In this document: piece by piece, positions 5,194-5,243 of the stretch
How the letters are laid out: each line of letters begins with the position of its first letter
How positions within the stretch are numbered: the stretch's first letter is position 1
Source of the DNA: Escherichia coli
Lineage (GTDB): Bacteria; Pseudomonadota; Gammaproteobacteria; Enterobacterales; Enterobacteriaceae
Assembly: GCF_016903815.1 (NCBI RefSeq)
Contig: NZ_CP069973.1
Length of the DNA stretch: 64,000 nt
Direction: 5' to 3' (one strand)
Notes under the pieces: generated by a model
The model's input: the letters and a program-made list of their open reading frames with translations, nothing else
What the model was told of the DNA's origin: nothing
Databases searched by the model: none
Position numbers and translations under genes: made by a program

Positions 5194-5203
5194 GACCATA
5201 CAT

Positions 5204-5237
5204 AAAAAAGCCGGGGATAATTCCCCGGTTTTTTTTA
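5204..5237. terminator. bidirectional rho-independent terminator between nupC and pdeA
   Basis: aaaaaa-gccgggga-taat-tccccggt-tttttttt: GC stem flanked by A-run and T-run. Confidence 0.8.
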
Positions 5238-5243
5238 CGCCTG

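Follow-up and report, generated by a model that had tools for sequence, protein, structure and literature searches.

The 50-bp spacer between nupC and pdeA (yfeA) in the stretch of Escherichia coli DNA analyzed here (64 kb, hereafter the window) is, we conclude with considerable confidence, an intact and presumably never-occupied predicted transcription terminator that doubles as a recurrent target for IS186, and the window carries the empty state found in the majority of genomes. In the explanation we favor, a hairpin lying between a run of six A residues and a run of eight T residues would end both the nupC and the pdeA transcripts. Its stem happens to spell GGGG-N6-CCCC, a sequence that the IS186 transposase would prefer, and IS186 would insert repeatedly at this site in E. 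coli because the stem spells that target. Each insertion would duplicate the sequence GGATAATTCC, part the two halves of the stem, and destroy the terminator for both genes. The window strain, which is identical here to E. coli strain 7/2, would simply have kept the majority, and probably ancestral, empty state.

The genes on either side are readily recognized. nupC, encoding a nucleoside:H+ symporter, occupies positions 3991-5193 of the plus strand (400 codons, ATG start, TAA stop at 5191-5193), as judged from the open reading frame and its translation, NCBIfam, and RefSeq; the frame upstream of the spacer matches the NupC family TIGR00804, scoring 486.7 bits where the cut-off is 442, and the frame upstream of nupC is assigned by NCBIfam to MntH. 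pdeA, encoding a predicted c-di-GMP phosphodiesterase, occupies 5244-7433 of the minus strand (729 codons, ATG start, stop codon at 5244-5246), as judged from the open reading frame and RefSeq; its NCBIfam matches are of the EAL/GGDEF type, all below equivalog cut-offs. The limits of both genes were set with the K-12 start codons, and both frames are open. The RefSeq gene names come from the identical sequence in strain 7/2, whose closed chromosome matches the window with 100% identity across 1050 bp. The two genes are convergent on opposite strands, with stops at 5193 and 5244 flanking a spacer (5194-5243) that reads GACCATACATAAAAAAGCCGGGGATAATTCCCCGGTTTTTTTTACGCCTG and is exactly 50 bp long; the ends of the reading frames thus bear out the length and position given for this gap in the original prediction. 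It is this spacer that constitutes the unoccupied counterpart of the IS186C site of K-12.

The spacer contains a single inverted repeat, whose arms span 5204-5217 and 5222-5235, and no other structure. At its center is a GC-rich hairpin, GCCGGGG-ATAATT-CCCCGG (5210-5228), made up of a stem half GCCGGGG at 5210-5216, the loop ATAATT, and a stem half CCCCGG at 5223-5228, and recovered by folding, by a pattern scan, and as an inverted repeat. In the direction of the nupC transcript, the stem is followed directly by the T8 run at 5229-5236, the U-tract of the plus-strand terminator. In the direction of the pdeA transcript, the sequence reads CCGGGGAATTATCCCCGG and then CTTTTTT (a site of seven pairs, six of them GC), and the A6 run at 5204-5209 supplies the U-tract. 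RNA folding gave -22.2 kcal/mol for the plus strand (z = -4.65) and -22.6 kcal/mol for the minus strand (z = -4.23), and none of 200 shuffled sequences did as well in either case; a scan for the consensus pattern called a terminator-like site on each strand. The spacer thus reads as a bidirectional Rho-independent (intrinsic) terminator by its form, predicted to serve both of the convergent genes, and from this form we infer that the hairpin would terminate transcription in vivo. The original prediction had proposed a single bidirectional terminator; as to form, it holds on both strands by sequence and by folding, and its function stays a predicted one.

The T-run that follows the hairpin (5229-5236) varies in length among strains: it is T8 in the window but T7 in K-12 and in the majority of the strains sampled, while ST648 has T6 and O157:H7 has CT6. 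An Rfam scan of positions 4900-5600 at a permissive E-value returned no family above its gathering score; Leu_leader (28 bits, where the gathering score is 50) and three small RNA families (16-21 bits, also sub-threshold) were rejected as chance matches driven by the terminator hairpin. A single terminator shared by two convergent genes is an arrangement already described in E. coli (Ju et al. 2019, cited in bioRxiv 10.1101/2022.10.23.513370). Like the bidirectional terminators of Ju et al. as they are presented there, the nupC-pdeA site is one short stem-loop between convergent genes that is expected to set both 3′ ends. It differs in having the classic intrinsic form, hairpin and then U-tract, on both strands, whereas the class emphasized in the cited work lacks the look of intrinsic terminators and depends on polymerase collisions.

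Comparison with K-12 establishes what the window lacks. The annotation of MG1655 (NC_000913.3) places 'insertion sequence:IS186C', with insL3 (b2394), at 2514273-2515617, between nupC (which ends at 2514244) and pdeA (2515643-2517832). IS186C is 1339 bp long, bounded by perfect 23-bp terminal inverted repeats (CATAAGCGCTAACTTAAGGGTTG), and flanked by a 10-bp direct target-site duplication, GGATAATTCC. When the window was aligned by blastn to MG1655 2508501-2580000, the alignment broke exactly at the nupC-pdeA spacer: window positions 1-5225 align with K-12 2509053-2514276, and positions 5214-27316 with K-12 2515614-2537704. The two alignments overlap by 12 bp of the window (5214-5225) because the target sequence is duplicated in K-12. 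Once IS186C and one copy of the duplication are removed, the K-12 sequence equals the window spacer except for T7 in place of T8. The flanks are orthologous to those of the IS186C locus (45 differences over 3750 aligned sites), the target sequence is present in a single copy (5215-5224), and the ends of IS186, sought with up to three mismatches, are absent from the whole 64-kb window. The empty site of the window and IS186C of MG1655 therefore share locus, flanking genes, and nucleotide position, and differ in that the window has no insertion sequence and has T8 rather than T7 after the hairpin. The original prediction had placed an IS186 (insL) copy at this junction in MG1655, considered the site in the window to be empty, and named an alignment to MG1655 as the means of checking; it was right on both counts, since IS186C/insL3 is annotated there, the alignment found the element at the predicted point and not elsewhere, and the window has one copy of GGATAATTCC and no IS186 ends.

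The same alignment revealed several other differences between the window and MG1655. At about 27316-27320, some 960 bp of K-12 (2537705-2538665), including yfeS (b2420), are absent; the alignment leaves off at the end of yfeK and resumes just upstream of cysM. At about 32303-32308, some 127 bp of K-12 (2543656-2543782, between cysP and ucpA) are missing, a segment that we take to be, possibly, a repetitive extragenic element. Between yfeW and yfeX, about 710 bp (37931-38639) stand in place of 184 bp in K-12 (2549411-2549593). The cryptic prophage CPZ-55 of K-12 (K-12 2558691-2565480, between eutB and eutA) is absent, its empty site lying at about 47737-47759, and the eut operon is continuous in the window strain. 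Finally, the eutH-eutG intergenic region (50396-50531) has no K-12 alignment (2568140-2568322) at the threshold used and is either divergent or replaced.

The preferred target of IS186 is given as 5′-GGGG(N6/N7)CCCC in PMC6925257, which quotes Chong 1985, SaiSree 2001, and Lee 2016. The terminator stem and loop contain precisely such a sequence, GGGGATAATTCCCC at 5213-5226, and the 10-bp duplication is its center. This is the only GGGG(N6/N7)CCCC match within the 64-kb window, with no match to the N7 variant; one GGGG-N6-CCCC per 64 kb is about what chance provides (0.85 expected), so that the presence of the motif is by itself unremarkable. The target rule was tested on the reconstructed empty sites of the two other MG1655 copies. 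IS186A has the target GGGGATCACTCCCC and the duplication GGATCACTCC; IS186B has the target GGGGAGTAATCCCC and the duplication GGAGTAATCC. All three MG1655 copies, therefore, lie in GGGG-N6-CCCC with a 10-bp GG-N6-CC duplication. IS186A (dnaJ-hokC) and IS186B (hokE-entD) share with the nupC-pdeA site the 1339-bp element, the GG-N6-CC duplication, and a GC-rich hairpin target, but they adjoin hok/sok toxin-antitoxin loci, whereas the nupC-pdeA site is a terminator between convergent genes. The IS186 insertions described for the lon promoter are similar in that a specific GGGG(N6/N7)CCCC sequence attracts the element repeatedly; they differ in that they inactivate a promoter and are laboratory-selected, whereas insertion at nupC-pdeA disrupts only a shared terminator, downstream of both genes. 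A literature search on IS186 with nupC or yfeA, which covered sources other than most subscription journals, found no paper on this site. A preprint that links intrinsic terminators and IS186 (10.1101/2024.07.17.603904) was set aside as not relevant; it deals with terminator-like sequences inside or overlapping IS186. We infer that recurrence at nupC-pdeA reflects the target preference of the transposase.

How often the site is occupied was gauged in 5426 complete E. coli genomes, 5424 of which have the nupC-pdeA locus. The junction is uninterrupted (a 1050-bp probe is covered in one place) in 4460 of the 5424, or about 82%, a slight overestimate of clean junctions in that the search tool bridged a few small inserts (W13-16, BS-01, and 2020CK-00188). 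IS186 lies in the K-12 orientation, with the nupC end joined to the left end of the element, in 477 genomes, a class inflated by the inclusion of K-12 laboratory derivatives. In 465 genomes, among them HS, E. coli C, ATCC 8739, H10407, and UMNK88, the orientation is the opposite one, and the nupC end abuts the reverse complement of the right end; HS has the two junctions and again the duplication GGATAATTCC, and its transposase gene is on the opposite strand. Altogether this one nucleotide position carries IS186 in 942 of the 5424 genomes (about 17%, or roughly one in six), the two orientations being about equally frequent. IS186 is found anywhere in the genome in 2221 of the 5426, so that the nupC-pdeA site is occupied in about 42% of IS186-bearing genomes (942/2221), and it accounts for about 12% of the 7828 chromosomal places of IS186. 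The nupC-pdeA junction is a recurrent landing spot for IS186, not a peculiarity of K-12, and its empty state is probably ancestral. The original prediction had also offered the missing copy as a strain marker: the empty site is real, but it makes a weak marker, since empty is the majority state and the insertion is not specific to K-12.

The three bridged inserts differ in kind. E. coli O139:H1 W13-16 carries IS200C in the spacer (L004 801-1560), upstream of the hairpin and after GACCATACATAAA, with the terminator left intact. BS-01 (L005 801-1593) has a spacer of about 790 bp, low in complexity and error-ridden, that closes with a degraded end of IS186; its appearance is that of an IS186 copy left poorly polished in assembly rather than of a real allele. 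2020CK-00188 (L006 801-942) has a divergent junction, with 96.5% identity to the window across the 1050-bp probe, in which a 142-bp spacer keeps the GCCGGGGATAATTCCCCGGC hairpin and continues into REP-like sequence, GCCTGATAAGCGTAGCGCATCAGGC, replacing the T-run.

The flanks of nine occupied and six empty alleles were compared over 3750 ungapped columns with 149 variable sites. On the K-12-type flank, MG1655, FDAARGOS_1277, and BUCT2930 carry the element in the K-12 orientation, and SLK172 and 2013C-4991 carry it in the opposite orientation with zero to two flank differences from MG1655 in 3.75 kb (one in the tabulated comparison); no empty allele was sampled on this flank. The HS/B-type flank is found with the K-12 orientation in 510016, the opposite orientation in HS, and the empty site in Nico21 (a BL21 derivative) and K207-3, 510016 differing from the HS flank at three sites and the two empty alleles at five. 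The ST648 flank, sampled only in the opposite orientation, in ST648 itself, stands apart by 81-96 differences from the others, by private SNPs less than 100 bp from the site, and by its T6 run. A further opposite-orientation allele, 08-00022, has 13 differences from K-12, is mosaic-looking, and was left out of the flank types. The duplication GGATAATTCC is identical in all nine occupied alleles inspected, those of K-12, HS, ST648, and six other genomes. Since the element occurs in two orientations and, in addition, on the distinct ST648 background, the flank haplotypes imply at least three apparently independent insertions of IS186 at nupC-pdeA. Up to about 400 bp from the site, the K-12-type flank does not differ from the HS-type flank, and occupied alleles could have been shared in part between these two backgrounds by homologous recombination rather than by new transposition. 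PdeA protein identity was rejected as a haplotype marker, WP_000497400.1 occurring both in occupied K-12-type genomes and in an empty O111:H8 genome, and haplotypes were defined from DNA. In some copies at the site the transposase gene is dead (L010, L013, L014): 2013C-4991 and BUCT2930 have a frameshift, and 510016 has an internal stop. Sequencing error might also account for these lesions, two of them being single-base deletions.

On a rival reading, the two orientations arose from a single event followed by inversion of the element in place through its 23-bp terminal repeats, and the site would then not count as a recurrent target. Both orientations share their junction nucleotides and duplication, and both occur on flanks zero to two sites apart in 3.75 kb (MG1655 against SLK172 and 2013C-4991), as such an inversion would predict. 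An identical duplication is, however, also expected of a sequence-specific target, and all three MG1655 copies have GG-N6-CC duplications; moreover, repeats of 23 bp are barely long enough for homologous recombination. The element of ST648 sits on a clearly distinct local haplotype and needs a separate event, and the paper on IS186 in the lon promoter labels each allele by the orientation of insL. We therefore regard inversion of a single insertion as unlikely and favor recurrent insertion.

Two further possibilities bear on the empty site itself. The vacancy could be secondary, the result of a precise excision that removed IS186 with one copy of the duplication and restored the terminator. 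Such an event would leave no trace in the sequence, and on the HS/B-type flank empty and occupied alleles are only three to five differences apart in 3.75 kb, but precise excision is rare among elements of the IS4 family. It would also have to be reconciled with the breadth of the empty state, which extends over about 82% of genomes, including the divergent O157:H7, O111:H8, window, and 96.5%-identical 2020CK-00188 lineages, with the presence of IS186 in only 2221 of 5426 genomes, and with the lack of any IS186 end in the window; we consider it very improbable. The notion that the assembly lost an IS copy by collapse, leaving an artificially short junction, has even less to recommend it, to the point that we hardly credit it. 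Draft assemblies commonly collapse IS elements, and one complete genome, BS-01, has a garbled IS186 remnant at this very site, but the closed chromosome of strain 7/2 is 100% identical over 1050 bp, thousands of closed genomes have an uninterrupted junction, and the spacer in the window has a clean single copy of the target with no IS end. A site that was never occupied, in a strain that retains the majority state, remains the reading we adopt.

The consequences of occupation may be gauged from the altered junctions. The K-12 and HS junction RNAs fold with only about -11 kcal/mol (z about 0), and the pattern scan called no terminator-like site at the K-12 IS186 junctions. IS186 splits the stem, and to judge from these sequences, the predicted terminator would be lost to both nupC and pdeA wherever the site is occupied. 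Transcription of the co-oriented gene, nupC in K-12 and pdeA in HS, would then read through into the transposase gene.

The components of this account are already known: IS186C of K-12, the target consensus of IS186, and the shared terminators of convergent genes. What we add is modest, namely that the site is naturally and recurrently occupied in both orientations and that the empty state is the norm. It follows that the window does not derive from K-12 or from the approximately 17% of E. coli with IS186 at this junction. The presence or orientation of the element here is a poor, partly homoplastic lineage marker, because IS186 recurs on different backgrounds. In the window the terminator can be read whole, whereas the K-12 reference has it only in broken form, and studies of nupC or pdeA 3′ ends in K-12 concern an IS-disrupted terminator. 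We would go further and suggest, at about even odds, that the nupC-pdeA terminator is a main natural landing site of IS186, hit independently at least three times and in both orientations since its stem spells the target. If that is true, the site would be a low-cost 'safe harbour' for IS186. In occupied strains, K-12 among them, neither nupC nor pdeA would be terminated properly, and transcription might run on into the transposase gene or exert antisense effects.
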